31,116 nt of DNA from a virus (taxonomy: Duplodnaviria > Heunggongvirae > Uroviricota > Caudoviricetes): IMG/VR virus record IMGVR_UViG_2690316344_000014. One strand, given 5' to 3'. The notes below the pieces were generated by a model that was not told where the DNA came from, searched no databases, and was given only the letters and a program-made list of their open reading frames with translations. A program made the position numbers and the translations under genes. Below, in pieces: positions 3,949-24,906 of the stretch. Numbering within the stretch: the stretch's first letter is position 1; every line of letters starts with the position of its first letter.

Positions 3949-4242
3949 ATGAAAAAAATGTTGTTTTCTGCCGCTCTGGCAATGCTTATTACAGGATGTG
4001 CTCAACAGACGTTTACTGTTGGAAACAAACCGACAGCAGTAACACCAAAGGAAACCATCACCCATCACTTCTTCGTTTCGGGAATTGGACAGGAGAAAAC
4101 TGTTGATGCAGCCAAAATTTGTGGCGGCGCAGAAAATGTTGTTAAAACAGAAACCCAGCAAACATTCGTAAATGGATTGCTCGGTTTTATTACTTTAGGC
4201 ATTTATACTCCGCTGGAAGCGCGTGTGTATTGCTCACAATAA
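3949..4242 (+). CDS. borD: Bor lipoprotein (serum-resistance moron)
   Basis: Internal start MKKMLFSAALAMLITGCAQQTF gives a 97-aa product with a lipobox (LITGC) that matches lambda Bor. It is oriented opposite to the lysis genes, as in lambda. Confidence 0.9.
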   Translation: MKKMLFSAALAMLITGCAQQTFTVGNKPTAVTPKETITHHFFVSGIGQEKTVDAAKICGGAENVVKTETQQTFVNGLLGFITLGIYTPLEARVYCSQ

Positions 4243-4273
4243 TTGCATGAGTTGCCCATCGATATGGGCAGCT

Positions 4274-4735
4274 CTATCTGCATTGCTCATTAATATACTT
4301 CTGGGTTCCTTCCAGTTGTTTTTGCATAGTGATCAGCCTCTCTCTGAGGGTGAAATAATCCCGTTCAGCGGTGTCTGCCAGTCGGGGGGAGGCTGCATTA
4401 TCCACGCCGGAGGCGGTGGTGGCTTCACGCACTGACTGACAGACTGCTTTGATGTGCAACCGACGACGACCAGCGGCAACATCATCACGCAGAGCATCAT
4501 TTTCAGCTTTCGCATCAGCTAACTCCTTCGTGTATTTTGCATCGAGCGCAGCAACATCACGCTGACGCATCTGCATGTCAGTAATTGCCGCGTTCGCCAG
4601 CTTCAGTTCTCTGGCATTTTTGTCGCGCTGGGCTTTGTAGGTAATGGCGTTATCACGGTAATGATTAACAGCCCATGACAGGCCGACGATGATGCAGATA
4701 ACCAGAGCGGAGATAATCGCGGTTACTCTGTTCAT
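4274..4735 (-). CDS. rzpD: Rz i-spanin
   Basis: From the internal Met, [55 protein letters not shown]..., near-identical to lambda Rz and immediately downstream of the lysozyme gene. Confidence 0.9.
4333..4515 (-). CDS. rzoD: Rz1 o-spanin lipoprotein, embedded in Rz in the +1 frame
   Basis: 60 aa, [24 protein letters not shown] with a lipobox and a proline-rich stretch ([13 protein letters not shown]). Fully nested inside Rz, the lambda Rz/Rz1 architecture. Confidence 0.85.
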
Positions 4736-5229
4736 TGCTGACCCCACAAACAGATTTCACGCTCAATCTCACGACGAGTCATGAGACCTTTCCATTGCTT
4801 ACCGCCAGCATATGTCCAGCGACGTAGCTGATCACATGCGCCTTTGATATCGCCCTGGTTTATTTTGCGAAGAAGCGTCGATGTTCTGAAATTGCCAGCA
4901 CCCACGTTGTAAACGAATGAGTAAAGAGCGCCGCGCATTGTTTCCGGTATATCGACTTTGATGTACGGGTTAATTTGTCTGGCGACCGTGGCAAGGTCTT
5001 TATTCAGGAGGGCTTTGCATTCTGCTTTGGTATACGTTTTACCGAGCATGATGTCTTTTCCTGTATGCCCGTGACATACAGTCCATACACCAACAATATC
5101 TTTGTATGGTATGTAGCTGACACCTTCCAGACCATCGTTACCACTTGGGCCAGTAATTAACACTGATGCTATAGCAATTGCTCCGCCACCAATAGCAGCA
5201 GCAACGGCTTTTCGTAATGATGGAGGCAT
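4732..5229 (-). CDS. rrrD: phage lysozyme (endolysin) with N-terminal hydrophobic signal-anchor-release-like segment
   Basis: 165 aa with a hydrophobic N-terminus ([20 protein letters not shown]) followed by lysozyme-family sequence ([16 protein letters not shown]). Sits between holin and Rz. Confidence 0.85.
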
Positions 5230-5444
5230 TATTCACCTCTCGCAGCCTTGCGCTTATCTTCTTTAATCTTGAAATAAAGGTTTGTCAGGTACGTCAGCAG
5301 GCCAAATACCAGGCTACCCAGCACACCTATTGCTGCCCACTGTGAGGGCGTGACTTTATCGAGCAGCTGTAAAAACCAGTAACCGGCACTACCTGCTGAG
5401 GTGCCATAGGCGACACCCGTTGTTAACTTATCCATGGATTTCAT
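5229..5444 (-). CDS. essD: holin
   Basis: 71 aa from the internal start [33 protein letters not shown]..., with transmembrane segments. Its stop overlaps the lysozyme start. Confidence 0.8.
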
Positions 5445-6032
5445 AACCCCACCTCGCAGACAAAGCGGGTGTAAATTGAGGGAATACAACGTATCGCAAA
5501 AAAGCAGAAACGTAACAGACTCGGAGTCAGTGAATAACTCAGGTATTGAGTTATCAGCTAATATCGAGACTCAAAAAATGGAAAAACCAGCTCGACGGCG
5601 GGTTAAGCTGTGTGACGAAGTAACCACTCTTAACAGCATAACCAATTTTTTACGTACGTAAACCACTGAATGATATTTATGAGAATGCTACCGAGTGTTC
5701 AAAACACCACCACAAATACATAAGAAAACCTCAACAAATAACCAACAAATAATTTCCAGTGTTATTTTTAGCCGATTTAAATTGAACCTTCAAATTATAG
5801 AGCACTTATAAATAACAGCCGTTAATATAAATTGGCTAATAGATTTATTTTTATTCAGCCAAGAGCTATGAATAGGATTCGATAGAAAAAAGTTCAGATA
5901 AAAATAGAGATCTACTTCACAAATCAAACGAGAAACCAAAACTTACATCTTGAAATAATCACATTGATTAGATGAATATTTATCGCGCAGTGACATCATT
6001 TTTTAATAATAGTTCAAAAAAAAGGGCTCACG

Positions 6033-7130
6033 ATGAAAAAATTAACAGTGGCAATTTCTGCTGTAGCTGCATCAGTACTGATGGCGATGTCTGCTCAGGC
6101 AGCTGAAATTTATAATAAAGACAGTAACAAGCTGGATCTGTACGGGAAAGTTAATGCCAAGCACTACTTCTCCTCTAATGATGCAGATGATGGTGATACT
6201 ACTTATGCCCGTCTTGGCTTCAAAGGTGAAACCCAAATCAACGATCAACTGACTGGTTTCGGTCAGTGGGAATATGAATTCAAAGGCAACCGCGCTGAAT
6301 CTCAAGGTTCCTCCAAAGACAAAACCCGTCTTGCATTTGCAGGCCTGAAATTCGGTGACTACGGCTCAATCGATTACGGCCGTAACTACGGTGTAGCATA
6401 CGACATCGGTGCGTGGACTGACGTTCTGCCAGAATTCGGTGGCGATACCTGGACCCAAACAGATGTGTTCATGACTGGTCGCACCACTGGTGTTGCAACC
6501 TATCGTAACAACGACTTCTTTGGTCTGGTTGATGGTCTGAACTTTGCTGCTCAGTACCAAGGCAAAAACGATCGTAGCGATTTCGATAACTACACTGAAG
6601 GTAACGGTGATGGCTTCGGTTTCTCTGCTACCTATGAATACGAAGGATTCGGTATCGGTGCAACTTATGCGAAATCTGATCGTACCGACACTCAAGTTAA
6701 TGCAGGGAAAGTTCTTCCTGAAGTATTTGCTTCCGGTAAAAATGCAGAAGTTTGGGCCGCAGGTCTGAAATATGACGCTAACAACATTTACCTGGCCACT
6801 ACCTATTCTGAAACCCAGAATATGACTGTATTTGCTGATCACTTCGTTGCTAATAAAGCCCAAAACTTCGAAGCTGTTGCACAATATCAGTTCGATTTCG
6901 GTCTGCGTCCGTCCGTTGCTTACCTGCAATCTAAAGGTAAAGATCTTGGAGTATGGGGCGATCAGGACTTAGTCAAATATGTTGATGTAGGTGCAACCTA
7001 TTACTTCAACAAAAATATGTCTACTTTCGTTGATTACAAAATCAACCTGCTTGACAAAAATGACTTCACTAAAGCACTCGGTGTAAGCACTGATGACATC
7101 GTTGCTGTAGGTCTGGTTTACCAGTTCTAA
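6033..7130 (+). CDS. nmpC: outer membrane porin NmpC (OmpC/OmpF family), intact
   Basis: 365 aa, signal peptide [23 protein letters not shown] followed by [16 protein letters not shown] and C-terminal ...VGLVYQF, a classic general-porin signature. AT-rich upstream region; lies between Q and the lysis cassette in the opposite orientation. Confidence 0.9.
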
Positions 7131-7139
7131 TCTGATTAC

Positions 7140-7180
7140 GAAAAAGATATGTTGCGGGAGGCGTTGCCTCCCCAACATAT
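7140..7180 (-). terminator. near-perfect ~15-bp-stem hairpin followed by T-run on the minus strand (candidate tR'-like terminator downstream of Q)
   Basis: ATATGTTGCGGGAGGC-GTT-GCCTCCCCAACATAT at 7147-7180. On the minus strand it is followed by CTTTTTC. Confidence 0.4.
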
Positions 7181-7267
7181 AAGTGGCTCCCTCAAGCCAC
7201 TTCCTTTAGAAGCACAACCTTGCTTCTAACTATATAAACCTTCTGTTATATATTACCCTTTATTTTT

Positions 7268-7300
7268 GGGGGCGTCTCAACGCCCCATTTTTAATAATTT
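7268..7300 (+). terminator. rho-independent terminator (nmpC 3' region)
   Basis: GGGGCG-tctcaa-CGCCCC followed by ATTTTTAATAATTTTT on the plus strand. Confidence 0.5.
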
Positions 7301-7319
7301 TTAGTAAACAATTGGCATA

Positions 7320-7703
7320 TTAATTAGAGTTATTAACAACGATATCCATCTCTAACCGGATATCTAATGCCATTAACATCCCTTCAATTATGCCCTCAGC
7401 CTTCTGTAACCTTTTCCCGATATAACCATCAGAGCAGCAATGCTTACCTGCCAGTGACATGAATGTCATACCGACTACATAATAATCTACTAATAAATCG
7501 TGCAAATCGCTGTTGTTCTTTTTCAGACGGGCCATGCACCCGCAAATGATCATCGCGTCATCGTCACAACATTGCGGGCGAGATTTTACTTTTGAAGGAA
7601 TTAATCCCTTAAAACCGGCGGCAATGGACGACCAGGTCACATCTTCATGATTATTAGCCGCCCACGCTCCCCAACGCTCAAGAACCATCTGAATATCACG
7701 CAT
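7320..7703 (-). CDS. quuD: late-gene antiterminator Q
   Basis: [60 protein letters not shown], cysteine-rich Q family. Sits upstream of the lysis cassette. The ORF can extend to 7718 (MWSKL...). Confidence 0.8.
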
Positions 7704-7788
7704 CAACTTACTCCACAAAAATCAGACCAGAACGCCAATCACAAGCAAAAATCAACAAAACAGTATTAGTTGATTGTTATCTCTGACT

Positions 7789-7929
7789 TCATACTCCTGC
7801 TCCTGTCAGGGTTTTGGCGTAATTCTTCAGTATTCGGTAATCGGTCAAAACAGAACCGGGGAAACGATATAAGCGCAGATGCCCCCAGCGGTGGCGAAGA
7901 AGTTCTGCCATATAAAACTCAAACATCAT
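7789..7929 (-). CDS. ylcG: small prophage protein YlcG-like (46 aa)
   Basis: Found by hand below the ORF-track length cut-off: [46 protein letters not shown]. Its start overlaps the rusA stop, between rusA and Q. Confidence 0.55.
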
Positions 7930-8288
7930 TCATTCCCCATTTCGGTGATGGTCAGTTCCAGCCTCCCACCTTTGGTAACGGGCATCTTCACAACGCGGTA
8001 ATCAACGACCTGAGCATCATCCAGCCAGAAACCTGCTTTAGTGAGTGCGTCAAAAGCGGCTTTTTGCAGATTATCCAGGTCACGGCGACGGCGATCCGGC
8101 ATGTGGCACTCAATGCGGATTTTCACAGGCATAGCCAGGCCGATATCCAGCATTGCGTTTTTAATGATTCGGGCGACGTTATCGCGGTATGCCTGCCCCT
8201 CTGCGCTGATGTGCGTGCGCCCGCGATTATGGCGGTAATAGCGATTATTGCTCGGAGGCCAGGGTAATGTGATGCTGTAGGTATTCAC
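7926..8288 (-). CDS. rusA: Holliday junction resolvase RusA
   Basis: 120 aa, [26 protein letters not shown] ... [26 protein letters not shown], the RusA family. Confidence 0.9.
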
Positions 8289-8575
8289 GCCTTAATAACC
8301 CCCTCTTTCAGCCAGATAACCTGTGTTCTCGCCATACCTTCCAGCGCGCATTCTTTTGCATATGCAGCATCGACAAAATGTGTGCGGCGGTCGATTTCGT
8401 CGTGGCAGGCAGAACATGCAATGGTGGCAATCAGGTCTGGCGGTTTGATACCGGTACCGCACAATCCAGCCAGCCGGATATGTGCCAGTACAGACGTTTC
8501 AGGGTTGCCATTACATACGCCAGGGATTCTTACCTGGCATTCCCGACCACGCGCTGCTTTTCTCAAATCAGCCAT
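8285..8575 (-). CDS. ybcO: YbcO-like prophage protein (putative nuclease, Cys-rich)
   Basis: 96 aa from the internal start [47 protein letters not shown]. Position between ninE and rusA matches DLP12. Confidence 0.75.
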
Positions 8576-8738
8576 GACTCCTCCTTGCTGCCAGTCGCAA
8601 CCATTTTTTATCAACCAAGCTGGCGGTATATCCGAGCAGTGTTGGTATTTCGGATGGCTTCAGCTCAGGTTTACGCTTACGACGATTTGGTACTCTGTAG
8701 ATGTGTCCGTTCATGACACGAATAAGCGGTGTAGCCAT
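8568..8738 (-). CDS. ninE: NinE
   Basis: 56 aa from the internal start [53 protein letters not shown]-type overlap with the upstream gene. Confidence 0.75.
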   Translation of the reverse strand: MATPLIRVMNGHIYRVPNRRKRKPELKPSEIPTLLGYTASLVDKKWLRLAARRSHG

Positions 8739-9193
8739 TACGCCTCCTGCTTGTCGCGCAGCAGCTGAAACTCGCAGCTCTGTGGAATAGTCAGGTGGCA
8801 ACCAATATTCATCGCCCAGGCTTCAACCTTACACAGGAAGACATACATCTCTCCGGTATCAAGATCGGAGGTATGGCGTAACGACTGGATAGTGGTGATA
8901 TCACCGGTTACGACATCAACCAGGTCTTTGGTTTCATAACCGAGATATGTGTGTTTGAGAGCATCTTTTACCCAAGCTGGAGTAGCGAACGTTTTACCCT
9001 TGCTGATGAGGTATTCACTGATTTCGCTGTACCACATGTGGCTGAGTGCATTCTGGGAAAGACTGCGTCTCTCGCGCCACGGTTTAAGCACCATGCGAAA
9101 GCATTTGCCTTCCTCCAGATAAGGCTGGATCTGCTGGCCGATAGCGGTGAAGTTGCCGCGATGTAATTTGATGCCGTCTTGTGGGAGGTTCAC
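8738..9193 (-). CDS. ybcN: YbcN-like prophage protein
   Basis: 151 aa, [55 protein letters not shown]. Position matches DLP12 ybcN. Confidence 0.75.
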
Positions 9194-9315
9194 GCTTCAC
9201 CTCCGCAGAGGTCAAACGCTAGATGCAAAGAATTGCAGGTGCATTTCTGCATCTGTGAAAGGAGAAGATAGTTTGGATTGTATGTGCGCATAAACGTCCC
9301 CGTTTAGCGCAGAAG

Positions 9316-9344
9316 TCACCGGAGTTGTTCAGGCTCCGGTGACA
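9316..9344. terminator. perfect 10-bp-stem hairpin between ybcM and ybcN
   Basis: GTCACCGGAG-ttgttcagg-CTCCGGTGAC, about 65 nt downstream of the ybcM stop. No strong T-run on either side, so its function is uncertain. Confidence 0.3.
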
Positions 9345-9407
9345 TAATTATGCCGTGTTGATTTCCCAAAATCAAAATCGATAGAATTGCTCCTTCTTAA
9401 AACACTT

Positions 9408-10205
9408 TTACTCTCTGGAAGCTTTTCTTATCTCTCTTGGTGTTATATTAAAACGATTATGAAATCTTTCAGTAAAACGAGAAGGACACTTATAACCATT
9501 TTCTCTGGCAATCTCGCTTATAGGTTTTACCGTCGTTTGTATAGCAGACAACGCATTATTTAACCTCACATCGTCCAGTATACTTTGGAAACTTACCCCC
9601 TCGCTTGCTAGACGGCGATGTAATGTAGAAACAGAAATGTAGAGATATCGAGCAACCTTGTTTGCTGTCCATTTTGTGCCGGGTTCGGATAGCAGCAGGT
9701 TATAACAACGACTTATCAATGATTGTTTACTATATGATAAAAGTAAATGATTAACATGATTCACTCCTAACGAAAGTAGAACGCCCATTGCTAAGTGCTC
9801 CTGAATTTTAGTTGAGAAGCCTCGGGAAACAGATGTTTTTAGTTGCTCCCAACAATATATTAACTCAGGATTCTGAGGTAAAAAGAAACTTGTTTTGTTA
9901 CGTATTTGATCAGTTACCGTATAAAGTTTTTGGAAACTCTCAATTAAATCAATGGGTAAGTAAAGCATTTCTGCAAGATAAAGCCCTGCTTCAGGATAAT
10001 TCTCAATATAAAATTCATAACCACAAGGAAATAATATTATTTGATTATTATCAACAGTTAAAGTATGCGTCTCCCAATTGATAACTTTCTTTCCCTGACG
10101 GATACGACACAAAGCTGGCATAAGAGGCTTAACCCTATGAATCTCATGATGTTTATGCATCCGTATTTCTTCGATCTTTAAGTTAGTCTTACCTCTTGCC
10201 AGCAT
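9408..10205 (-). CDS. ybcM: AraC-family transcriptional regulator
   Basis: 265 aa with a C-terminal AraC-type HTH region ([43 protein letters not shown] ... [28 protein letters not shown]). Confidence 0.85.
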
Positions 10206-10214
10206 ACTCTCACC

Positions 10215-10766
10215 CTACTTTATCTCATAAACTGGTGTTATCTCAGCGGTTGCGATTTTATTAGCATTAAGCATATAACCAACTAACGCTCCGCTGGAGT
10301 TAGAATCTACAGGAATCTTTTCAGTTTTTAGAGCCCATACTTTAAACTGGTAATGATGTGGTTTATCTCCTTTAGGAGGACATGCGCCACCAAACCCAGC
10401 ATAGCCAAAATCATTTCGGCCTTGAACAGCACCAGTCGGCAGTTTTGTTCCATCACGTCTCCCTGCATCAACGGGCAAATATGTTACTGTTGCTGGAATA
10501 TTAACAACAGTCCAATGCCACCAACCACTGCCTGTAGGTGCATCTGGATCATATACAGTTACGGCAAAGCTTTTGGTACCTTCAGGAACACCAGACCAGG
10601 TTAATGAGGGCGATGTATTACCACCTTCACACCCAAATCCAGAAAAGACATGAGACGTTGTAAGTTGCTCTCCTGTTTTTATTTCATTACTAGTGACCTG
10701 AAATGCTGCAGCCTGCGCAGAAAATGTTATGAATGCCAATACAGTTGAAACGATAAGTGTTTTCAT
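10215..10766 (-). CDS. ybcL: periplasmic YbcL-like protein (phosphatidylethanolamine-binding / Raf-kinase-inhibitor-like family)
   Basis: 183 aa with signal peptide MKTLIVSTVLAFITFSAQAAAFQV and a conserved PDAPTGSGWWHWTV motif. Confidence 0.85.
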   Translation of the reverse strand: MKTLIVSTVLAFITFSAQAAAFQVTSNEIKTGEQLTTSHVFSGFGCEGGNTSPSLTWSGVPEGTKSFAVTVYDPDAPTGSGWWHWTVVNIPATVTYLPVDAGRRDGTKLPTGAVQGRNDFGYAGFGGACPPKGDKPHHYQFKVWALKTEKIPVDSNSSGALVGYMLNANKIATAEITPVYEIK

Positions 10767-10982
10767 AAAAACCTCTTTGTTATGACCTATCGTTATTTTA
10801 TTTGATATTCCTTTATCTCATTATGCATAAAGGCGCAATGTTCATGCAAAAGCAATCACAATTGTACCCCCAACCCAATTATTTGCCACAATATACACAA
10901 AGCACATTGATACTATCTAAAAACTCTGCTTTATTATTAGTAATACCTACGAAAGTCGGTGTTATTTTTTAACCTACCATTC

Positions 10983-11032
10983 AAAATACGTGACATACAC
11001 CATTTTGCTCATAATAATTTGTCACGTATTTT
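10983..11032. promoter_or_regulatory. 13-bp perfect inverted repeat with 24-bp spacer in the ybcL upstream region
   Basis: AAAATACGTGACA (10983-10995) and TGTCACGTATTTT (11020-11032). Candidate operator; no U-run, so not an obvious terminator. Confidence 0.3.
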
Positions 11033-11230
11033 CAGTATTTGAATCTGCGACCAAGAGTTCTCACCTAACAAATGATTAAGATTGTATAGCTCATTTACTA
11101 CCCCAATACAGCCGTACAAAACTCGCTTGTGGGAGCAAACAAAGTAATTACCCATTAAGTTTCGTCAAAGATAATTAATTCTGTCTTGCACTTTATCACC
11201 ATAGCATAACTTAAAATCCGAGATCATTAT

Positions 11231-12757
11231 TTAGAAATAAATCTCACCATCAACCATATATTTGAGAGCACTTATCGCCTGCTGGGCGGATATTACTTTC
11301 ATTAAAGGATAGTGTTTAAAAACAATGCCATTCATAAAATAGATATCACAGGTTTTATTATCCGTATTAATTATGATTTTTTCGAATGTTTTATAGGCAA
11401 GTGTACGGCATAACTCTCGTCCATTTTTACTGGTTAAGTCAATAGCATAAAAATCACTGAATGAATTTACACCTTTACTCTTCAAAGTTTTCAATGATAC
11501 CGAAGCCCTTCGTAATTCCTTATCTAATAGTCTTATTTTCTCTGCTATAGCGGTAACTTCAGGCGCGACAGACAATGCAACGATTAAATTATTAATTTTC
11601 ATCTGAAGCTCAATAATTTTTAACTCTAAAGTTTCATTAGCATCTTTCTTGTTTTCAACTGGTTGAATTTTGCTACAATTAAAAAGCAATTCATTAATGA
11701 TATTATAATCAACCAAATCTCTTTTTATTGATGGCCTGTCACATCGATGTAATCTTCTCATCGGACAAACATAATAGCCATGCAAACTTCCAGATGCCGC
11801 ATGAACAATCATGGTATTACCACAAGCCTCACACTTCATAACTGTTCGAAGTAGATTTATTAGCATAGGATTCTTGCTACTATTGCTAATACCAAAAGGT
11901 ACCAACCGAATTTCCTGTACAGCGTAAAACAAATCATCTGATATGACTCTGGGATAATAGCCAGCGATTTCACTTATCCCTTTCCCTCTTGCACGATATG
12001 AAGGTACGCATATACCTATCAGAGCTTTATTCGCTAATAATTTTTCAATTACAGAAGGTCCCCATGCACTTTCTTTTCCTGAGAAATTCTTTACAGCATG
12101 ATCATTTAAATACTTGGCTATTGCATTCAATGAGCGCCTTTCCATCCTGAGTTTAAAAATTAGCTCAATAGTTTTCACCCTGTCGGGGTCTGGAACAAAA
12201 GCCGTTCTTTTGTCATCTAAGGAGAGCCATCTCGGACAAGACGCCGTCATAATCGTACCTGATTCCAGTGCATCCTGCCGTTTTTTCTTCCATGATAATT
12301 TAACCCGACTTGACTTTATCTCGCTTTCTTCATTTGCCCTTTGTGCTATAAGTATGGCTTTTATTAATGAATATGGCTCATTCAAAGAGTCAATATTATA
12401 GACTGTATTGTCGCAAAGAGTTATAACATCAATACCGTGATTCAAAATCAATTTCAGACGTTCAATCGCTTCACCGACTTTTTCTCTTGAAAGTCTGTCC
12501 AGACTTTCAACTAACAATGTAGTTCCTGGCAATATATAACCATGCTCTATAGCATCTAAAAATTCCGAAAAAGCTCCTGATTGTGCATGCTTTCCTTTGA
12601 ATGCACTTAATCCTAAATCTTCATATGTTATGGTATCAAGATAATAATCACTATTTACCTTTAACCATTCAGCAATAAGTCTTCTCTGTCGGTTTAATGA
12701 GTCGCCAGACATCTGACCTGGTGATGAAAATCGCATATATGCTATGGCTTTTTTCAT
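11231..12757 (-). CDS. ybcK: large serine recombinase (resolvase/invertase N-domain plus recombinase and zinc-ribbon domains)
   Basis: 508 aa. N-terminal resolvase catalytic region (MKKAIAYMRFSSPGQ ... SLNRQ with the catalytic Ser) and a C-terminal Cys cluster (CEACGNTM ... YYVCP). Position matches DLP12 ybcK. Confidence 0.85.
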   Translation of the reverse strand: MKKAIAYMRFSSPGQMSGDSLNRQRRLIAEWLKVNSDYYLDTITYEDLGLSAFKGKHAQSGAFSEFLDAIEHGYILPGTTLLVESLDRLSREKVGEAIERLKLILNHGIDVITLCDNTVYNIDSLNEPYSLIKAILIAQRANEESEIKSSRVKLSWKKKRQDALESGTIMTASCPRWLSLDDKRTAFVPDPDRVKTIELIFKLRMERRSLNAIAKYLNDHAVKNFSGKESAWGPSVIEKLLANKALIGICVPSYRARGKGISEIAGYYPRVISDDLFYAVQEIRLVPFGISNSSKNPMLINLLRTVMKCEACGNTMIVHAASGSLHGYYVCPMRRLHRCDRPSIKRDLVDYNIINELLFNCSKIQPVENKKDANETLELKIIELQMKINNLIVALSVAPEVTAIAEKIRLLDKELRRASVSLKTLKSKGVNSFSDFYAIDLTSKNGRELCRTLAYKTFEKIIINTDNKTCDIYFMNGIVFKHYPLMKVISAQQAISALKYMVDGEIYF

Positions 12758-13013
12758 GGTGACACCTGCTAACGTATGCTTTTATAAACCTTAGTGGTGG
12801 GATATAATTTTTTGTTTATTTTTTATTTAAAAAGACAATTAAGGTCACATTATCTTGAATATACAACAATAATCGTATTGCAATTTTCTTACGCCATAAT
12901 CTTGAAAGCACAAAAGAATACATAAAAAATAAAGACATTAACAAAAAGCATAAAACGAGGCTCATATAAATATAAGAGCCTCCATATTTTAGTCGTTTAG
13001 AAACAAATTATTT

Positions 13014-13256
13014 TAATGTGGTGTGCTTCGTGACAATAAATTAATAATCAACACACCGGCACAAATCAACATCATGCCTATAATGGCTGGCAGGTCCAGC
13101 CGTTGGCCGAAAAATCCCCATGACAGTAAGCTAATCAGGACAATACCGACTCCTGACCAGATAGCATAAGCAATCCCTGTAGGAATATAAGCCAGCGTCT
13201 GAGCTAATAACCAGAATGATGCACAATAACAAATAATTGTACCAACAGATGGCCAT
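13014..13256 (-). pseudogene. emrE: emrE (small multidrug resistance transporter) 3' fragment, 5' end replaced by IS2
   Basis: Reverse-strand translation gives WPSVGTIICYCASFWLL ... ending LLSRSTPH-stop, the EmrE C-terminal ~80 residues. The reading frame breaks at the IS2 terminal repeat at 13257. Confidence 0.75.
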
Positions 13257-13966
13257 TGGATTTGCCCCTATATTTCCAGACACCTGTTATCACTTAACCC
13301 ATTACTGGCTTGCTGCCGTAGATATTCCCGTGGCGAGCGATAACCCAGTGCACTATGCGGATGCCATTCGTTATAATGCTCGAACGCCTCTGCAAGGTTC
13401 TTTGCTGCCGTTAACCCGTCTGGTTTGGGCATGACACTGATGTAGTCACGCTTTATCGTTTTCACGAAGCTCTCTGCTATGCCGTTACTCTCCGGACTCC
13501 GCACCGCCGTGCTCTTCGGTTCAAGCCCCAACATCCGGGCAAACTGCCGTGTTTCATTAGCCCGGTAGCATGAACCATTATCCGTCAGCCACTCTACTGG
13601 AGACGCCGGAAGCTCGTTGCCGAAGCGGCGTTCCACCGCTCCCAGCATGACGTCCTGTACTGTTTCACTGTTGAAGCCGCCCGTAGTGACCGCCCAGTGC
13701 AGTGCCTCACGGTCACAGCAGTCCAGCGCGAACGTGACTCGCAGTTTTTCTCCGTTATCACAGCGGAACTCGAACCCGTCAGAGCACCATCGCTGATTAC
13801 TTTCTTTCACAGCCACTCTGCCTGTATGTGCCCGTTTCGATGGCGGTACAGCAGGTTTTCGCTCAAGCAACAGCGCATTCTGGCGCATGATCCGGTAAAC
13901 ACGTTTGGCATTGATCGCAGGCATACCATCAAGTTCTGCCTGTCTGCGAAGCAGCGCCCATACCCG
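13257..13966 (-). mobile_element. IS2 partial copy (right end and 3' part of insD only, ~710 bp of ~1.3 kb)
   Basis: Reverse complement of 13257-13300 is the IS2 terminal sequence (...GGGTTAAGTGATAACAGGTGTCTGGAAATATAGGGGCAAATCCA). The InsD C-terminal 218 aa is intact. Similarity to IS2 stops after ...CGCCCATACCCG at 13966, where the lambda gam 3' end begins. Confidence 0.85.
13268..13924 (-). CDS. insD: IS2 transposase InsD, C-terminal fragment (IS3 family OrfB)
   Basis: [53 protein letters not shown] ... [24 protein letters not shown]. The N-terminal third of InsD and all of insC are absent. Confidence 0.85.
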
Positions 13967-14072
13967 TGCGTTTGATGACGATGTTGAGTTTCAGGAGCGC
14001 ATGGCAGAACACATCCGGTACATGGTTGAAACCATTGCTCACCACCAGGTTGATATTGATTCAGAGGTATAA
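13965..14072 (+). pseudogene. gam: gam 3' fragment (last ~35 codons of lambda Gam)
   Basis: Translates as [35 protein letters not shown]-stop, the lambda Gam C-terminus, directly upstream of bet. The 5' part is deleted at the IS2 junction. Confidence 0.8.
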
Positions 14073-14077
14073 AACGG

Positions 14078-14863
14078 ATGAGTACAGCACTCGCAACGCT
14101 GGCTGGGAAGCTGGCTGAACGTGTCGGCATGGATTCTGTCGACCCACAGGAACTGATCACCACTCTTCGCCAGACGGCATTTAAAGGTGATGCCAGCGAT
14201 GCGCAGTTCATCGCATTACTGATCGTTGCCAACCAGTACGGCCTTAATCCGTGGACGAAAGAAATTTACGCCTTCCCTGATAAGCAGAACGGCATCGTTC
14301 CGGTGGTGGGCGTTGATGGCTGGTCCCGCATCATCAATGAAAACCAGCAGTTTGATGGCATGGACTTTGAGCAGGACAATGAATCCTGCACATGCCGGAT
14401 TTACCGCAAGGACCGTAATCATCCGATCTGCGTTACCGAGTGGATGGATGAATGCCGCCGCGAACCATTCAAAACCCGTGAAGGCAGAGAAATCACGGGG
14501 CCGTGGCAGTCGCATCCTAAACGGATGTTACGGCATAAAGCCATGATTCAGTGTGCCCGTCTCGCCTTCGGATTTGCGGGTATCTATGACAAGGATGAAG
14601 CCGAGCGCATTGTCGAAAATACCGCATACACTGCAGAACGTCAGCCGGAACGCGACATCACTCCGGTTAACGATGAAACCATGCAGGAGATTAACACTCT
14701 GCTGATTGCCCTGGACAAAACATGGGATGACGACTTATTGCCGCTCTGTTCCCAGATATTTCGCCGCGACATTCGCGCATCGTCGGAACTGACACAGGCC
14801 GAAGCAGTGAAAGCTCTTGGATTCCTGAAACAGAAAGCCTCTGAACAGAAGGTGGCTGCATGA
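14078..14863 (+). CDS. bet: Red-beta single-strand annealing recombinase Bet
   Basis: 261 aa, [66 protein letters not shown]..., near-identical to lambda Bet over its full length. Confidence 0.95.
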
Positions 14864-15540
14864 CACCGGACATTATCCTGCAGCGTACCGGGATCGACGT
14901 GAGAGCTGTCGAACAGGGGGATGATGCGTGGCACAAATTACGGCTCGGCGTCATCACCGCTTCAGAAGTTCACAATGTGATAGCAAAACCCCGCTCCGGA
15001 AAGAAATGGCCTGACATGAAAATGTCCTACTTCCACACCCTGCTTGCCGAGGTTTGCACCGGTGTGGCTCCGGAAGTTAACGCTAAGGCGCTGGCCTGGG
15101 GAAAACAGTACGAGAACGACGCCAGAGCCCTCTTTGAGTTCACTTCCGGCGTGAATGTTACTGAATCCCCGATCATCTATCGCGACGAAAGTATGCGCAC
15201 CGCCTGCTCTCCCGATGGTTTATGCAGTGACGGCAATGGCCTTGAACTGAAATGCCCGTTTACCTCACGGGATTTCATGAAGTTCCGGCTCGGTGGTTTC
15301 GAGGCCATAAAATCGGCTTACATGGCCCAGGTGCAGTACAGCATGTGGGTGATACGAAAAGATGCCTGGTACTTTGCCAACTATGACCCGCGTATGAAGC
15401 GTGAAGGCCTGCATTATGTCGTGATTGAGCGGGATGAAAAGTACATGGCGAGTTTTGACGAGATGGTGCCGGAGTTCATCGAAAAAATGGACGAGGCACT
15501 GGCTGAAATTGGTTTTGTATTTGGGGAGCAATGGCGATGA
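14860..15540 (+). CDS. exo: lambda exonuclease (Red-alpha)
   Basis: 226 aa, [65 protein letters not shown]..., full-length match to lambda Exo. Start overlaps the bet stop. Confidence 0.95.
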
Positions 15541-15719
15541 AGCATCCTCACGATAATATCCGGGTAGGCGCGATCACTTTCGTCTACTCCGTTACAAAGC
15601 GAGGCTGGGTATTTCCCGGCCTTTCTGTTATCCGAAATCCCCTGAAAGCACAGCGGCTGGCTGAGGAGATAAATAATAAACGGGGAGCTGTATGCACAAA
15701 GCATCTCCCGTTGAGTTAA
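15531..15719 (+). CDS. lambda orf61-like small early protein
   Basis: 62 aa immediately after exo, the position of lambda orf61. Product unknown. Confidence 0.55.
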
Positions 15720-15883
15720 GAACGAGTATCGAGATGGCACATAGCCTCGCTCAAATTGGAGTCAGGTTTGTGCCAATACCAGTAGAAACAGACGAAGAAT
15801 TTCATACGTTAGCCGCATCCCTTTCACAAAAGCTGGAAATGATGGTGGCGAAAGCAGAAGCAGATGAGAGAGACCAGGTATGA
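15692..15883 (+). CDS. lambda orf63-like small early protein
   Basis: 63 aa, [63 protein letters not shown]. Position matches lambda orf63. Confidence 0.55.
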   Translation: MHKASPVELRTSIEMAHSLAQIGVRFVPIPVETDEEFHTLAASLSQKLEMMVAKAEADERDQV

Positions 15884-15959
15884 CAACCACTGAATGCATT
15901 TTTCTGGCAGCGGGCTTCATATTCTGTGTGCTTATGCTTGCCAACATGGGGCTTGTTCA

Positions 15960-16175
15960 ATGACACCTCAGCAAGAAAACGCCCTTCGCAGCATTGCCCG
16001 TCAGGCTAATTCTGAAATCAAAAAAGCCAGACAGCAGTTTCCGGATAAAAACGTCGATGACATTTGCCGTAGCGTACTGAAGAAGCACCGCGAAACGGTA
16101 ACGCTGATGGGATTCACACCGACTCATTTAAGCCTGGCGATCGGCATGTTAAACGGCGTCTTTAAGGAGCGATGA
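15960..16175 (+). CDS. lambda orf60a-like small early protein
   Basis: Internal start MTPQQENALRSIARQANSEIKKARQQFPDKNVDDICRSVLKKHRETVTLMGF...; position matches lambda orf60a. Confidence 0.5.
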   Translation: MTPQQENALRSIARQANSEIKKARQQFPDKNVDDICRSVLKKHRETVTLMGFTPTHLSLAIGMLNGVFKER

Positions 16176-16273
16176 ACATGAAAAGCAAAATCATCAGGGA
16201 GCTACAGGCTCCTTTTTTATTATTCGCATTCACCCTCAAGCGTATTAACCAACAATTCAGGGATTAATGGAAG

Positions 16274-16492
16274 ATGGCAGACATCATTGATTCAGCATCA
16301 GAAATCGAAGAATTACAGCGCAATACAGCAATAAAAATGCGTCGTCTGAACCACCAGGTTATATCTGCCACTCATTGTTGTGAGTGTGGCGATCCCATAG
16401 ATGAACGAAGACGCCTGGCCGTTCAGGGTTGTCGGACTTGTGCAAGTTGCCAGGAGGAGATCGAACTTAAGAACAAACAATGGGGATTGTGA
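16274..16492 (+). CDS. TraR/DksA-family C4 zinc-finger protein (lambda Orf73-like)
   Basis: 72 aa with CxxC-x17-CxxC (CCECGDPIDERRRLAVQGCRTCASC), the TraR/DksA C4-type zinc-finger layout. Phage homologues of this family are known to act on host RNA polymerase. Confidence 0.65.
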   Translation: MADIIDSASEIEELQRNTAIKMRRLNHQVISATHCCECGDPIDERRRLAVQGCRTCASCQEEIELKNKQWGL

Positions 16493-16539
16493 TGGCCTCA
16501 AAGCAGCAAATTTCAACATCGTCCAACTGAGGTGTAAAA

Positions 16540-16818
16540 ATGTTCAGAATCATTTTTCCTAACACCTGGTACGTCGACCACCACGGCACTCCCTGCAAAA
16601 TCCTGCGTTCTACCCACAACAAAGTTCACTACATCCGAAAAGGCAGAACATGTATCGCCAGCATGTTCCGCTTTAATCATGACTTTGAACCTGTGAATAA
16701 AGCTGATGCAGATCGGATAGCAGAAGAGATCGAAACGGCAGAACACATTAAGAAGTTACGTGACATGCGTTCAAAAAGCAGAGGTAACCATGGAATCATA
16801 CAGCCTCACACTCGATGA
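16540..16818 (+). CDS. small Cys/His-rich early-left protein (possibly Ea8.5-like)
   Basis: 92-aa ORF between the TraR-like gene and xis, with several His/Cys residues. Assignment is tentative, from position and size only. Confidence 0.4.
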   Translation: MFRIIFPNTWYVDHHGTPCKILRSTHNKVHYIRKGRTCIASMFRFNHDFEPVNKADADRIAEEIETAEHIKKLRDMRSKSRGNHGIIQPHTR

Positions 16819-17140
16819 GGCCTGTCAGTTTCTCAAGATATCCAGACCTACCGCTACCAACTGGATACGAACAGGCCGCCTACAGGCAACACGCAAAGAC
16901 CCCACTAAACTAAAATCTCCTTACCTCACAACACGACAAGCCTGCATTGCGGCGCTTCAGTCTCCGCTGCATACTGTCCAGGTGAGCGCGGGTGATGGCA
17001 TAACAGAGGAAAGAAAATGTCACTCTTCCGCAGAGGTGAAATATGGTACGCCAGTTTCACATTGCCGAACGGTAAAAGATTTAAACAGTCTCTTGGAACA
17101 AAGGACAAAAGGCAGGCGACAGAACTCCATGACAAGCTAA
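16790..17140 (+). CDS. xis: excisionase (Xis), HTH DNA-binding
   Basis: Internal start with a good SD (GAGGTAACC-ATG): [37 protein letters not shown]. Immediately upstream of int, but overlaps it by ~120 nt, so the true 3' end is uncertain and the gene may be frameshifted. Confidence 0.55.
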
Positions 17141-18180
17141 AGGCTGAAGCATGGCGGGTCAGCAAACTTGGTGAAATACCTGATATAACGTTCGAGGAAG
17201 CGTGTGTCAGGTGGCTTGAAGAGAAAGCACATAAAAAATCACTGGACGATGACAAAAGCCGGATCGGATTCTGGCTTCAACATTTCGCAGGAATGCAACT
17301 AAGAGACATTACTGAATCAAAAATTTATTCAGCAATGCAGAAAATGACGAACCGGCGTAATGAGGAAAACTGGAAACTCAGGGCAGAAGCATGCAGAAAA
17401 AAAGGGAAACCTGTTCCAGAATACAAGCCAAAACCAGCGTCTGTTGCAACGAAGGCTACGCATCTTTCATTTATAAAAGCCCTACTAAGAGCCGCAGAGC
17501 GTGAATGGAAAATGCTGGATAAGGCACCAATTATTAAAGTGCCTCAACCAAAGAATAAACGGATCCGCTGGCTGGAGCCCCATGAAGCACAAAGGCTGAT
17601 TGATGAATGTCCGGAGCCATTAAAGTCTGTTGTTGAATTTGCACTGGCAACAGGCTTAAGACGCTCGAACATCATCAACCTTGAATGGCAACAAATAGAT
17701 ATGCAGCGCCGGGTGGCATGGATAAACCCGGAAGAGAGTAAATCAAACCGCGCAATCGGCGTTGCGCTGAATGATACTGCATGTCGCGTATTGAAAAAAC
17801 AAATCGGGAATCATCACCGTTGGGTATTTGTGTACAAGGAAAGCTGTACCAAACCAGACGGAACGAAAGCGCCAACAGTAAGGAAGATGCGGTATGACGC
17901 AAACACAGCCTGGAAAGCGGCGCTGAGACGGGCTGGTATTGATGATTTCAGATTTCACGACTTGAGACACACCTGGGCAAGTTGGCTGGTTCAAGCCGGA
18001 GTCCCGTTGTCAGTGTTACAGGAAATGGGAGGCTGGGAGTCTATCGAAATGGTTCGTCGATATGCTCACCTTGCACCTAATCACCTTACCGAACACGCAC
18101 GGCAAATAGACTCGATCCTGAACCCATCGGTCCCAAATTTGTCCCAGTCAAAAAATAAGGAAGGTACTAATGATGTGTAA
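17017..18180 (+). CDS. int: prophage tyrosine integrase (DLP12 IntD-like)
   Basis: 387 aa with a C-terminal catalytic region ([42 protein letters not shown], i.e. HxxR ... Y). Ends 15 nt before the tRNA-Thr fragment and is convergent with it. Confidence 0.9.
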
Positions 18181-18194: not shown

Positions 18195-18243
18195 TGGTGC
18201 CGATAATAGGAGTCGAACCTACGACCTTCGCATTACGAATGCG
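18195..18243 (-). other. att core: 3' 49 nt of a tRNA-Thr(CGU) gene (thrW-like), not a complete tRNA
   Basis: Reverse complement is CGCATTCGTAATGCGAAGGTCGTAGGTTCGACTCCTATTATCGGCACCA: anticodon stem-loop (anticodon CGT), T-arm and CCA end. Sequence 5' of the anticodon stem does not continue as D-arm or acceptor stem. Confidence 0.8.
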
Positions 18244-18331
18244 TAAATTGATCTTGTAAAATCAATACCTATCGAATTTAAATGGATTTTTTGCCACAAT
18301 ATTGCCACAGTTCGTTAGGAATCAGACAGAA

Positions 18332-19405
18332 ATGGCGACTATACGCAAACGTGGTAACTACCAATGGGAAGCTCAAATCCGTAAACGTGGTTTTCCCTCT
18401 CAAACCAAAACCTTTAACACCAAAGTAGAAGCAGAAGCTTGGGCCAAAATGATCGAGTCAGAAATGGCGAGAGGAGTTTGGCTTAGCCGCAGCGAAGCGG
18501 AATCTACGACATTGTATGAAGCCCTAACGCGATATGAAAAAGAGATTGTTCCCGACAAAAAAGGGGCAGTGCAAGACCGATCATTGGTGCGGATACTAAA
18601 AGGCACTCAGCTGGCGAAAAACTATATGGCCAGCATCAGGAGTGCCGATGTCGCCAAGCTGAGAGATGAATGGTTGAAAATCTATGCTCCTGCAACCGTT
18701 TTAAGGCGTTTGGCCTTACTTTCTCATGTATTCAATGTTTCGCGGAAAGAATGGGGCATGGAGAGCCTGCTGAACCCCGTAGAGGCCATTCGCAAACCCC
18801 AACCCAAGAACTCCAGGACCAGACGCCTAGAAGCGCTGCCTGTAGTTTCTGAGAAAACCGGTGTTACGTCAGGAAAGCAAATAGCCAACGAGATCGAACA
18901 TATCATCGCCGCAACACATTCATTAGTATTGCCAGCAATCATTCTTCTGGCGTTAGAGACAGCCATGCGCCGTAGCGAAATCGCAGAGCTTCGATGGCGC
19001 TTTATCGATCTTGATCGGCGAGTTGCACATCTGCCGGATACTAAGAATGGTAATGCCCGCGATGTCCCTTTATCAACGAAAGCCATTACGATACTGTCCA
19101 GTCTCAAGGAACATTCTAAGCCAGCTGCTGATAAGGTTTTTGATATGCGTGCAGACGCGATTACCCGAGCTTTTGACCGAGCTGTAAAACGAGCCAGAGA
19201 ACGATACGAGAAAACAAACTCATTATGTGATGAATCTTTCCTTAAAGATTTAAGATTTCATGACCTTCGACATGAAGCAACTTCTCGACTTGCTGAAATT
19301 TTCCCTATGCATGAACTAACCAAAATTACAGGACATAAAGATCCAAGAATGCTAATGCGGTATTATCATCCAAAAGCTGAAGATTTGGCGTTAAAGTTGA
19401 AATAA
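18332..19405 (+). CDS. second tyrosine site-specific integrase/recombinase
   Basis: MATIRKRGNYQWEAQIRKRGF... with C-terminal catalytic residues (RRSE, LRFHDLRHEATSRL, MLMRYYH). The ORF can start at 18302. Lies just across the att fragment from the prophage int. Confidence 0.85.
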   Translation: MATIRKRGNYQWEAQIRKRGFPSQTKTFNTKVEAEAWAKMIESEMARGVWLSRSEAESTTLYEALTRYEKEIVPDKKGAVQDRSLVRILKGTQLAKNYMASIRSADVAKLRDEWLKIYAPATVLRRLALLSHVFNVSRKEWGMESLLNPVEAIRKPQPKNSRTRRLEALPVVSEKTGVTSGKQIANEIEHIIAATHSLVLPAIILLALETAMRRSEIAELRWRFIDLDRRVAHLPDTKNGNARDVPLSTKAITILSSLKEHSKPAADKVFDMRADAITRAFDRAVKRARERYEKTNSLCDESFLKDLRFHDLRHEATSRLAEIFPMHELTKITGHKDPRMLMRYYHPKAEDLALKLK

Positions 19406-19414
19406 GGACGTTGT

Positions 19415-20305
19415 ATGGATTATAAAAATAAGTTAGTTGATGCATCACCAAAATTAAACAACCCTCAACTATTGGCTATAATATACTTAATACCTTTTGG
19501 ATACTTGATTGTAGAAAACCCATTATGGCTAGAAAATATATACATTGCCGCTCCAATTTTCCTATCATCTATAGCTTTATTAACCAGTGTATACATAGGA
19601 TATCGTGATTTATTAAATAAAGTATTTAATAATGCAGTAGTTAAATGGGGCGTAACTGGCTTTACATATTCCGTATGCTTATGGATCGCAAAGTTTAAGC
19701 TTGACATAGCTTATGGTATAGTCCCAGAAAACCTTAATTACTCGACATTAGCTTATGCTTTCATGCTCTCATTTCCAATAGGGGCAATGATTTGTGCAAT
19801 TACAGTCTATATATACATATTTTTGCGAGATGTATCCCCAGCAAAAATAGTAATATCCTCTATGATTTCAGTATATATTGGAAGCTTGGCTCAACATCAT
19901 ATACAGGTGAACAATCTTCCTGAAAAAATAATATTAATAGGACTTATAATTATGGTCCCCTATAACATGGTCAATTTAGCTAGTTCATTAGTTATTAAAA
20001 GGAAATTTAATTTTAATCGTTTAGTATCAGGCTTATCCCTTTTTGCTGTGTCAGTTGCTCTTTTTATTATTAGCATGACAGCAATGAAATACATTGAAAG
20101 ATTTCAAGAAAAGTTTATTTTTCTCGATGCAAGAACATCTACGACATGTGGTAGCTCAGAAAGCAAATCTCTTTATATTGAAAAAAATGAAAATCAGTGT
20201 TATAAAATATCAGGAAATAAATTCTCGGAGTTAAGACTAACTCTTGTAGATAAAAACATCTTGAATATAAATAATAAAGGCACTTCAACTTATGAACAAA
20301 AATAA
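19415..20305 (+). CDS. hypothetical polytopic inner-membrane protein
   Basis: 296 aa, AT-rich codon usage, multiple long hydrophobic segments (LLAIIYLIPFGYLIV, AAPIFLSSIALLTSVYIGY, LIGLIIMVPYNMVNLASSLVI, LSLFAVSVALFIISM). No family recognised. Confidence 0.6.
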   Translation: MDYKNKLVDASPKLNNPQLLAIIYLIPFGYLIVENPLWLENIYIAAPIFLSSIALLTSVYIGYRDLLNKVFNNAVVKWGVTGFTYSVCLWIAKFKLDIAYGIVPENLNYSTLAYAFMLSFPIGAMICAITVYIYIFLRDVSPAKIVISSMISVYIGSLAQHHIQVNNLPEKIILIGLIIMVPYNMVNLASSLVIKRKFNFNRLVSGLSLFAVSVALFIISMTAMKYIERFQEKFIFLDARTSTTCGSSESKSLYIEKNENQCYKISGNKFSELRLTLVDKNILNINNKGTSTYEQK

Positions 20306-20519
20306 CCCTGCTAATTCATTTTCTATAGAAGCAAGGAAAGAAGCTTTTCGGAGAGCTGAAGCCAGTCTTTTTTATCAAGTAAAGATCCCAAAGGCTCCTC
20401 ATTTTTTAATGAAATAAAAACTAAGGTAATCAATGGAGAGCTAACCTATGAAGAGGCAAAGAGAGAAGTATTAAATTATCACATTGAACAATCTAAAAAT
20501 CAAAATAAAAAAGGCTAAC
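20292..20519 (+). pseudogene. small ORF split by a frameshift at a T6 run (41-aa 5' part plus 3' part in another frame)
   Basis: MNKNNPANSFSIEARKEAFRRAEASLFYQVKIPKAPHFLMK-stop. Adding one T at the T6 run (20405-20410) restores a 75-aa ORF ending ...NGELTYEEAKREVLNYHIEQSKNQNKKG. Function unknown. Confidence 0.3.
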
Positions 20520-20539
20520 ATTTAGTTAGCCTCTTCTCA

Positions 20540-20752
20540 CTAGTGAGCTATTTTATAGTCCCTTAATGCATTTTTAAGTAACTCCGTTTGCTCATCAGCA
20601 TCATCATAATTATAAATTCCCGTAGCAGAATAATACTCTTCGATGCATAGAATATTTATCAATGGTTCACAAATCTCTTTAATAAACTCCTTGTTGTTAT
20701 CGGCAAAAATAATTTTTATTCCTTCCAAAACAAAGCTATTATAATCAGCCAT
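20540..20752 (-). CDS. hypothetical small acidic protein
   Basis: 70-aa ORF 70 nt downstream of trbL on the same strand. No recognisable family. Confidence 0.4.
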   Translation of the reverse strand: MADYNSFVLEGIKIIFADNNKEFIKEICEPLINILCIEEYYSATGIYNYDDADEQTELLKNALRDYKIAH

Positions 20753-20782
20753 TATCCACCTCCTTACAGGTGTTTAGTGGAA

Positions 20783-20814
20783 GCGTCAGTTAACGTTACC
20801 GCGCTAACTGACGC
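20783..20814. repeat. hairpin: 10-bp inverted repeat with 12-nt loop between trbL and the 70-aa ORF
   Basis: GCGTCAGTTA (20783-20792) and TAACTGACGC (20805-20814). No flanking U-run. Confidence 0.3.
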
Positions 20815-20821
20815 GCCTAAA

Positions 20822-22225
20822 TCAAGATTTTTTACTGCCAGTTAAACTATCACCCTCAAACTCATCCTGTTCGTGGTTAGTCTGACGATCGGCTGTGTGT
20901 TTACGTATTTGATTCGCTATTTCCCCACCAACGGTCTGTTGTCTTCGGATAGTATTAGTACTTCCCTTCATCATCTGATACTCCGAAGCTCCGTTAGACA
21001 ACCCGCTCGCCATGTGAGAAGCCATGCGGCCAGCTCGTGAGAATGATGAAGCAAACCCCTGGCTTCCTCCGCTGACGCTACCTGTATTACTCCCTGCAGA
21101 AGAACCACCGGAACCGCCTGATGGTTGTCCTCCAGAAGTATCTACGGAACCGGTATCTTCCCCTCCGCCAAATCCTCCACCTGAACCACCTTTATCACCA
21201 GAACCAGATTCTTCGGCCATCGCCGCTTGTGCAGATTCAAATGCTGCTTTTAGAGCGGAAGCACCACCACTGACTTGAGCTGTAGCACTTATTGCCATTG
21301 CCCCAGCGCCACTGATTGCAGTAGTAGCAGCGCCAGTAATCATACCTGCTCCAAAACCACCGATCCCTTGTAAGGACGCTCCTCCAACAACGCCTGATAA
21401 CAACAACGGTAATTTATTCGTCAATACTAAAAGAATAATTGACGCCAGAAGTAAAACAATAAGACTATTAAGATCAGGAATATCATTTTTAATAATAGAA
21501 AAATACTGATCTATAAATGATTGCCCAATCCCAATGATTAATGTCATCGTAAATAACTGAATACCAATCGATAATACTGTGCGTAAGTAATTTATTGCTA
21601 TATCAGAAGTCCATTTCGAGCCACCAAACCCAAGCAAAATAACTCCTGCATAACACAACACCCATGCAGAAACTAACATTATTAGCATATTTATCGCGAT
21701 AAGCGCCATTACTACTAATACTATTATCGCGACGGTTATCATAATGGTCGAAATCATTGGAGACCAAATTGATGCTGCTGAACTGACCTTTGTTAATATC
21801 ACAAATGCCATATCCACTATGCTGGAGGGTGAAATACCAGTACTTGTTCCTAAAGCATTTGCTGCAAGTTGTCTCATTGAGTTAATTATAGATTGTGATA
21901 TGGCTGGGCCGTTGATTAAAAGATAATAAAAAAAACCAATCACGGCAAAAAAACGAACTATTTCTGCAAGTGCACTGATTAAACCTTCCCCTTGCATCGC
22001 CAACATACCAAATGTCCAAACCATACTTATTAATACCACCCCCCAGAAGAGCCAATTTGCATAATCACCAATTACTAATGACCATGTGCTGGCTACTTGC
22101 TGAAACTTATCTAATAACGTATCAAGTAATCCGCTACTATCTAATTGACCAGCATAAGCATTTACAGAAAACAAAAAAAACATTCCTAAAAAAGTGAGCT
22201 TGCTTACTATTCTCATAATTACCAT
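20822..22225 (-). CDS. trbL: P-type conjugative transfer protein TrbL/VirB6
   Basis: 467 aa. N-terminal signal plus multiple transmembrane helices, then a C-terminal Gly/Ser-rich low-complexity tail (GGSGGGFGGGEDTGSVDTSGGQPSGGSGGSSAGS), typical of TrbL. Confidence 0.8.
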   Translation of the reverse strand: MVIMRIVSKLTFLGMFFLFSVNAYAGQLDSSGLLDTLLDKFQQVASTWSLVIGDYANWLFWGVVLISMVWTFGMLAMQGEGLISALAEIVRFFAVIGFFYYLLINGPAISQSIINSMRQLAANALGTSTGISPSSIVDMAFVILTKVSSAASIWSPMISTIMITVAIIVLVVMALIAINMLIMLVSAWVLCYAGVILLGFGGSKWTSDIAINYLRTVLSIGIQLFTMTLIIGIGQSFIDQYFSIIKNDIPDLNSLIVLLLASIILLVLTNKLPLLLSGVVGGASLQGIGGFGAGMITGAATTAISGAGAMAISATAQVSGGASALKAAFESAQAAMAEESGSGDKGGSGGGFGGGEDTGSVDTSGGQPSGGSGGSSAGSNTGSVSGGSQGFASSFSRAGRMASHMASGLSNGASEYQMMKGSTNTIRRQQTVGGEIANQIRKHTADRQTNHEQDEFEGDSLTGSKKS

Positions 22226-22392
22226 TCTCGCTTAGGGCTAGGATTGTTATTGCCACGCAGGGCACATTTATCGTAGTTATGTTCGTTCAATTTATTCTCT
22301 GGCGTCGATAAACAATCTTCATCTTTTTTATCGCAAGAGCATAGAATTAATGAAATTATTAGAATAAAAATGACCAAAAGTTTATCTTTCAT
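22219..22392 (-). CDS. small putative lipoprotein in the TrbK (entry-exclusion) position
   Basis: Found by hand (57 aa, below the ORF-track cut-off): MKDKLLVIFILIISLILCSCDKKDEDCLSTPENKLNEHNYDKCALRGNNNPSPKREW. Hydrophobic N-terminus followed by Cys; sits between trbJ and trbL as trbK does in IncP plasmids. Confidence 0.45.
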   Translation of the reverse strand: MKDKLLVIFILIISLILCSCDKKDEDCLSTPENKLNEHNYDKCALRGNNNPSPKREW

Positions 22393-22403
22393 TCAGCTCT
22401 CCC

Positions 22404-24904: not shown

Positions 24905-24906
24905 AT

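Follow-up and report, generated by a model that had tools for sequence, protein, structure and literature searches.

A deletion scar joining emrE to gam in a DLP12-family prophage, probably left by an IS2 insertion and a later microhomology deletion

How does the 3′ part of emrE come to lie beside the 3′ end of gam in a lambdoid prophage, with part of an IS2 element between them? A preliminary description of the 31,116-nt stretch of viral DNA analyzed here (the window) had read this arrangement as an IS2-mediated adjacent deletion that removed the immunity and replication region. By resolving both junctions and comparing the window with related prophages, we arrive at a different view of how the DNA was lost. 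We consider it likely, with a probability of about 0.8, that the scar records the decay of a DLP12-family lambdoid prophage in two steps, an insertion of IS2 and then a microhomology deletion. This is ordinary prophage decay and no new biological system.

The features of the scar and of the remainder of the window are compiled in Table 1. On the emrE side, direct reading of the minus strand places the stop codon at 13014-13016, and EmrE residues 31-110 are encoded at 13255-13016 with 98.75% identity to EmrE of strain JNE141411 (L019) by tblastn. Codons 1-30 of emrE, which specify transmembrane helix 1 and the essential Glu14, are absent from the window. Up to position 13256 the window is collinear with K-12 and JNE141411, and the right terminal repeat of IS2 begins at the next base as TGGATTTGCCCC..., such that the emrE/IS2 junction reads GTACCAACAGATGGCCAT followed by TGGATTTGCCCC. 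Both the sequence and blastn thus bear out the earlier reading that the IS2 right end abuts emrE at 13257. A megablast extension of the element to 13243-13246 was rejected as chance matches of flanking bases; the IS of L001 likewise ends at TGGATTTGCCCC.

Table 1. Coordinates of the scar and of other features of the window.
Feature	Position	Strand	Content	Basis
IS1 end	about 1-102			
Porin gene	6033-7130		nmpC homologue, 365 codons	
emrE remnant	13014-13256	-	codons 31-110 and stop codon	direct sequence reading, tblastn
IS2 remnant	13257-13966	-	IS2 nt 622-1331, right-hand 710 bp	blastn
Chimeric ORF	13905-14072		55 codons, TTG start	
Crossover microhomology TACCCG	13961-13966		common to IS2 orfB and gam codons 102-104	three-way alignment
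gam remnant	13967-14072	+	with the shared bases, Gam residues 103-138 and stop codon	Pfam, alignment, tblastn
bet (Red beta)	14078-14863	+	intact 261-codon ORF directly downstream of the scar	ORF list, tblastn
exo (lambda exonuclease)	14860-15540	+	intact 226-codon ORF	ORF list, tblastn
int	17017-18180			
thrW (tRNA-Thr) 3′ copy	18195-18243		49 nt, exact	
Second integrase gene	18302-19405			
Second integrative element	18302-31116			
PtaRNA1 antisense RNA	20746-20818		48.6 bits	
traJ-II RNA	23663-23762		93 bits	

The IS2 segment aligned without gaps to nt 1331-622 of K-12 IS2A at 96.62% identity (24 mismatches in 710), within the range of about 95% or more to the reference by which IS2 is recognized, and it was gapless and 100% identical over the 710 bp to the IS2 isoform of L001. 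That isoform is common, and other E. coli carry it as a complete element of 1,331 bp. As had been noted from the sequence, similarity to IS2 stops internally at 13966. The segment retains OrfB codons 70-301 (the C-terminal 232 codons) and lacks orfA, the frameshift site, the promoter and the left terminal repeat; it is therefore a fragment, with neither the two terminal inverted repeats of the 1,331-bp element nor the orfA and orfB pair read by programmed -1 frameshifting. Additional IS2 segments, the left-end sequence included, were not detected by blastn across the whole window.

On the other side of the scar, sequence compatible with gam begins at 13961, from which point the window matches the intact gam of strain CP53 (L018) without a difference, and sequence belonging to gam alone begins at 13967. 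The remnant matched positions 60-98 of the 98-position Pfam profile PF06064 (Gam) with E = 1.3e-20. Where about 35 terminal codons of gam had been estimated, we counted 36 (103-138). Downstream, Bet residues 1-261 showed 100% and Exo residues 1-226 showed 97.8% identity to their counterparts in JNE141411 by tblastn. The ORFs between exo and int encode a DUF1317 protein, a DUF1382 protein, a TraR/DksA zinc finger protein, a DUF4222 protein and an excisionase-like HTH protein. An Rfam search of the scar gave no match. The chimeric ORF of Table 1 begins in antisense IS2 and continues in the same frame through the 36 remaining gam codons; its 55-aa product has no record in the public gene collection, and the ORF is probably meaningless.

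The IS2/gam joint was resolved by a three-way alignment of the window, intact gam (CP53) and full-length IS2 (L001). At this point full IS2 reads ...GCGCCCATACCCG followed by ACGATA, intact gam reads ...AAAGCCATTACCCG followed by TGCGTT, and the window reads ...GCGCCCATACCCG followed by TGCGTT. The two parents, full-length IS2 and intact gam, share the 6-bp identity TACCCG, which lies inside a 9/11 match (GCCnnTACCCG); one copy is kept at the joint of the window. The microhomology is consequently 6 bp and not the CG dinucleotide first reported. When 400,000 random pairs of breakpoints were drawn between IS2 and the deleted region, the chance of an identity of 6 bp or more was 0.0015. The deletion endpoint falls at IS2 nt 622-627, inside orfB and 621 nt into the element.

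The extent of the loss was evident from the complete DLP12-family prophage of JNE141411 (NZ_AP027256.1), which lies at argU and is collinear with the window to the left and to the right of the scar. Window positions 926-13256 correspond to JNE141411 16001-28328 at 98.8% identity and positions 13958-17285 to 33190-36518 at 95.9%, leaving 4,861 bp (28329-33189) that have no counterpart in the window. These 4.86 kb hold the 5′ end of emrE, ren, P, O, a YdaT-like gene in the cII position, a cro-like gene, an S24 (cI-like) repressor gene, a kil-like gene and the 5′ part of gam. The JNE141411 prophage, with the order emrE-ren-P-O-YdaT-like-cro-like-S24 repressor-kil-like-gam-bet-exo, likely represents the undeleted state; unlike the window, it has no IS2, its emrE is intact, and it retains the early region, the full set of head and tail genes, and intD beside argU. 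None of its early-region proteins matched anywhere in the window by tblastn at an E-value of 0.01 or better, and neither did the lambda-type ren, P, O, cII, cro, cI, N, sieB, ral, cIII and kil products of strain CP53 at E 0.01. A full-length IS2, or a cI/O/P region elsewhere in the prophage, would have spoken against a deletion; since neither occurs in the window, the loss of the immunity and replication region by deletion, as proposed in the preliminary description, is real. If the ancestor resembled JNE141411, we estimate that the event removed about 5.5 kb, including IS2 nt 1-621. However, the ancestor may have differed from JNE141411, and with a lambda-type early region as in CP53 the deletion would have been ~8 kb.

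We propose that in the first step an IS2 isoform inserted in emrE at the boundary of codons 30 and 31, its right end pointing toward the emrE 3′ part, as suggested by the intact IS2 right end that abuts codon 31. In the second step, a single transposase-independent illegitimate recombination would have joined TACCCG in IS2 orfB (nt 622-627) to TACCCG in gam (codons 102-104). This would have taken IS2 nt 1-621, the emrE promoter and first 30 codons, ren, P, O, the gene in the cII position, the cro-like, cI-like and kil-like genes and the first 102 codons of gam. The O gene holds the lambdoid replication origin. An endpoint internal to IS2, the loss of the left end and a 6-bp joint are together the signature of such transposase-independent illegitimate recombination. 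Either replication slippage, or resection of a double-strand break with annealing and subsequent ligation, could have been the route; the 6-bp identity is compatible with both and does not tell them apart. Illegitimate recombination in E. coli is akin to microhomology-mediated end joining (PMC11372144). The scar resembles the short-homology illegitimate recombination of E. coli that is scored as aberrant lambda excision in the Spi- assay, in that the joint lies in a few bases shared by otherwise unrelated parents, one copy is retained and no end of a site-specific element is involved. The assayed recombination is characterized genetically by RecA independence and by roles of RecQ, SSB, RecBCD and ligase, and the class as a whole by independence from RecA and transposase and by a need for resection and ligase or for replication slippage. 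No intermediate preceding the deletion, in which a complete IS2 would interrupt emrE at codon 30/31, was detected among 5,426 complete E. coli genomes, species-representative genomes or JGI metagenome contigs; for that reason we infer the order and number of steps, as we do the single-event character of the deletion and its enzymology.

Alternatively, the scar could have arisen when parts of two prophages, one at argU and one at thrW, were joined by an inter-prophage or chromosomal rearrangement and not by a local deletion. The left block is 98.8-99.5% identical to DLP12 prophages at argU and the right block 95.9% identical to the JNE141411 prophage, the integrase gene of the window is of the thrW type, and the scar also occurs with a K-12-type intD in another contig (L023), so inter-prophage recombination did happen nearby. 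Nevertheless, the switch between modules lies at 16750-17285, about 3 kb from the scar, and complete DLP12-family prophages have gam-bet-exo next to the early region, arranged and oriented as here. Moreover, Bet is 100% identical to that of JNE141411, and the joint would still be a microhomology event within IS2. We therefore hold this route to be improbable.

Adjacent deletion by the IS2 transposase, in which intramolecular transposition from the copy in emrE would have removed the DNA up to gam, was the mechanism first proposed and now appears very unlikely. An IS2 copy does sit exactly at the deletion, IS3-family elements are known to generate adjacent deletions (PMC11708052), and a target-site duplication would not be visible, the left flank having gone with the deletion. 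In adjacent deletions, however, the IS is kept and the flanking DNA is lost starting at the IS terminus (PMC11708052). IS2 transposes at its right and left ends via a figure-of-eight and a minicircle, strand transfer using both ends (PMC3299598). In the window, the deletion ends 621 nt into the element, within orfB, and the 621 bp of IS2 that include the left end are missing across the whole window, such that a second deletion of exactly the left part of IS2 would be required. Transposition, in addition, has no need of the 6-bp microhomology found at the joint. An IS at the border of a deletion does not by itself implicate its transposase; the signature at this scar is the microhomology that our two-step reading accommodates. 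Homologous recombination between two IS2 copies was likewise considered and rejected, as it would restore a whole IS2.

Both junctions were found, identical, in at least 12 public draft-assembly contigs from independent assemblies, which were located by a look-up of the exact Exo protein in draft NCBI assemblies. L022, L024, L026-L031 and L032-L034 carry both junctions, at 99.9-100% identity across the region. Assemblies with the scar include GCA_001286425.1, GCA_001284705.1, GCA_042144375.1 and GCA_049861655.1. Either junction occurs in 0 of 5,426 complete E. coli genomes, none of which covers 80% or more of 12900-14300, and the 33-nt gam/IS2 and 39-nt emrE/IS2 junction sequences had no exact match in species-representative genomes or JGI metagenome contigs. 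The 218-aa OrfB remnant was uninformative as a query: it matched numerous unrelated IS2 copies whose predicted ORFs begin at the same internal Met. Identical junctions in many draft genomes establish that the scar is a real, inherited allele and no artefact. IS2 is multicopy, assemblers often fail at IS copies and complete genomes lack the junction, yet a contig misjoined at a repeated IS2 has next to no chance of being the explanation, given the same two junctions in 12 contigs of separate NCBI draft assemblies with differing downstream neighbours, and given that a unique internal position of IS2 meets unique gam sequence and not a repeat boundary. No description of the allele was found in the literature on DLP12, emrE and IS2. 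The scar adds an uncatalogued allele to a well-known type of prophage decay, and its two junction sequences are usable as a lineage marker. Strain TB4019, which had appeared as the best relative, proved to be a coincidence: it carries the IS2 isoform inside ybcK together with an intact emrE.

DLP12 has been found in 74% of 638 genomes (PMC6379469), and the closest well-described relative of the window is the DLP12 of K-12. Window positions 7064-13256, from quuD to emrE codon 31, are 99.5% identical to it (99.48% over 6,193 bp), and the block quuD-rusA-ybcO-ninE-ybcN-ybcM-ybcL-ybcK-emrE that typifies the DLP12 family is present. In both, the genes of the nin, moron and lysis regions follow the same order, immunity/replication and morphogenesis genes have been lost, and an IS lies in the ren-emrE neighbourhood. 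In K-12, though, the IS is a different one, as the preliminary description had stated, namely IS3C in renD, and the deletion is different as well: a fragment of exo is joined to a fragment of P (exoD′ to ′peaD), bet and gam are gone and emrE is intact. In contrast, the window keeps bet and exo, its emrE is broken by IS2, and ren and P are wholly gone. The endpoints of the morphogenesis deletion also differ, K-12 having an aaaD/tfaD junction. Because the breakpoints are different, the sequences indicate that the loss of the immunity/replication module in K-12 and in the lineage of the window is convergent, which fits the general picture of prophage degradation. As an aside, the prophage porin gene is intact in the window and split by IS5B in K-12 DLP12.

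At its left border, the window begins with the end of an IS1, followed by tail-fibre and tail-fibre-assembly sequence. The latter is fused near 926 to a 3′-truncated terminase large-subunit gene, which constitutes the morphogenesis deletion. This fusion is common to a few complete E. coli genomes (FT130, KFu019 and EC50).

With immunity, replication and morphogenesis genes missing, the prophage is defective. Devoid of repressor, early promoters, replication genes and origin, it would be expected neither to be induced nor to replicate. From their truncation, emrE and gam are predicted to be pseudogenes. Although bet and exo are intact ORFs, they have presumably lost their natural pL/N-dependent transcription; a promoter and terminator scan of 12700-14300 gave weak consensus matches only (5 vs. 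2.6 expected), none of them convincing for bet or exo. The IS2 remnant, having one end and no transposase, should be immobile. For annotation of the allele, we suggest that emrE and gam be treated as pseudogenes, the 218-codon "transposase" ORF as an IS2 fragment, and bet and exo as promoterless remnants. The scar offers a clean, base-resolved example of prophage domestication, and it matters little beyond annotation.

The insertion proposed as the first step is not the only one of its kind. Across different E. coli lineages, IS2 has inserted independently five times in a 215-bp stretch around the emrE start codon, at +126, +13, -10, -44 and -89 nt from the ATG; the insertion of the window (13257) is the one at -89. 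Four full-length copies near emrE (L004 4574, L005 4450, L006 4329 and L007 4295) have distinct 5-bp target duplications (GGCAC, CTTTC, AATAT and CAATG). In all five cases the right end faces emrE, a shared orientation that may be an artefact of the search, which joined pieces. The right end of IS2 is known to carry an outward-facing -35 element (PMC9330008). The cluster may reflect either an insertion hot spot or selection on emrE. That the 5′ end of emrE would be a recurrent IS2 target under selection is a speculative and rather unlikely proposition; were it true, IS2 would repeatedly switch a prophage-borne multidrug/osmolyte exporter on or off, and the deletion in the window would have followed secondarily from one of these insertions.

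Finally, the integration site of the prophage differs from that of K-12 DLP12, which resides at argU with intD. In the window, int is directly followed by an exact copy of the last 49 nt of thrW, and int diverges from intD beyond 17285, so the argU/intD arrangement is absent. The copy is the attachment-site repeat of a prophage at thrW and not at argU; ARAGORN detected no tRNA genes in the window. In strain E54, the PGAP annotation of the thrW fragment and its flank, a 112-nt "tRNA-Ser", is apparently a miscall. One contig with the same scar (L023) switches from about 16750 to a K-12-type intD (99.7% identity), such that the scar is found with two integration modules, one of the thrW type (the window) and one of the intD type, the switch lying in the xis/int 5′ region. 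The occurrence of one scar with two modules points to recombination between DLP12-like prophages after the deletion. Beyond the thrW fragment, the second integrase gene marks the start of a different, tandem integrative element at thrW; other elements lie behind the same fragment in L033 and L034. This second element carries conjugation genes of the trbL/trbJ type, as does a trb-type element in the ETEC-like strain E54, and it encodes the traJ-II RNA and the PtaRNA1 antisense RNA listed in Table 1.
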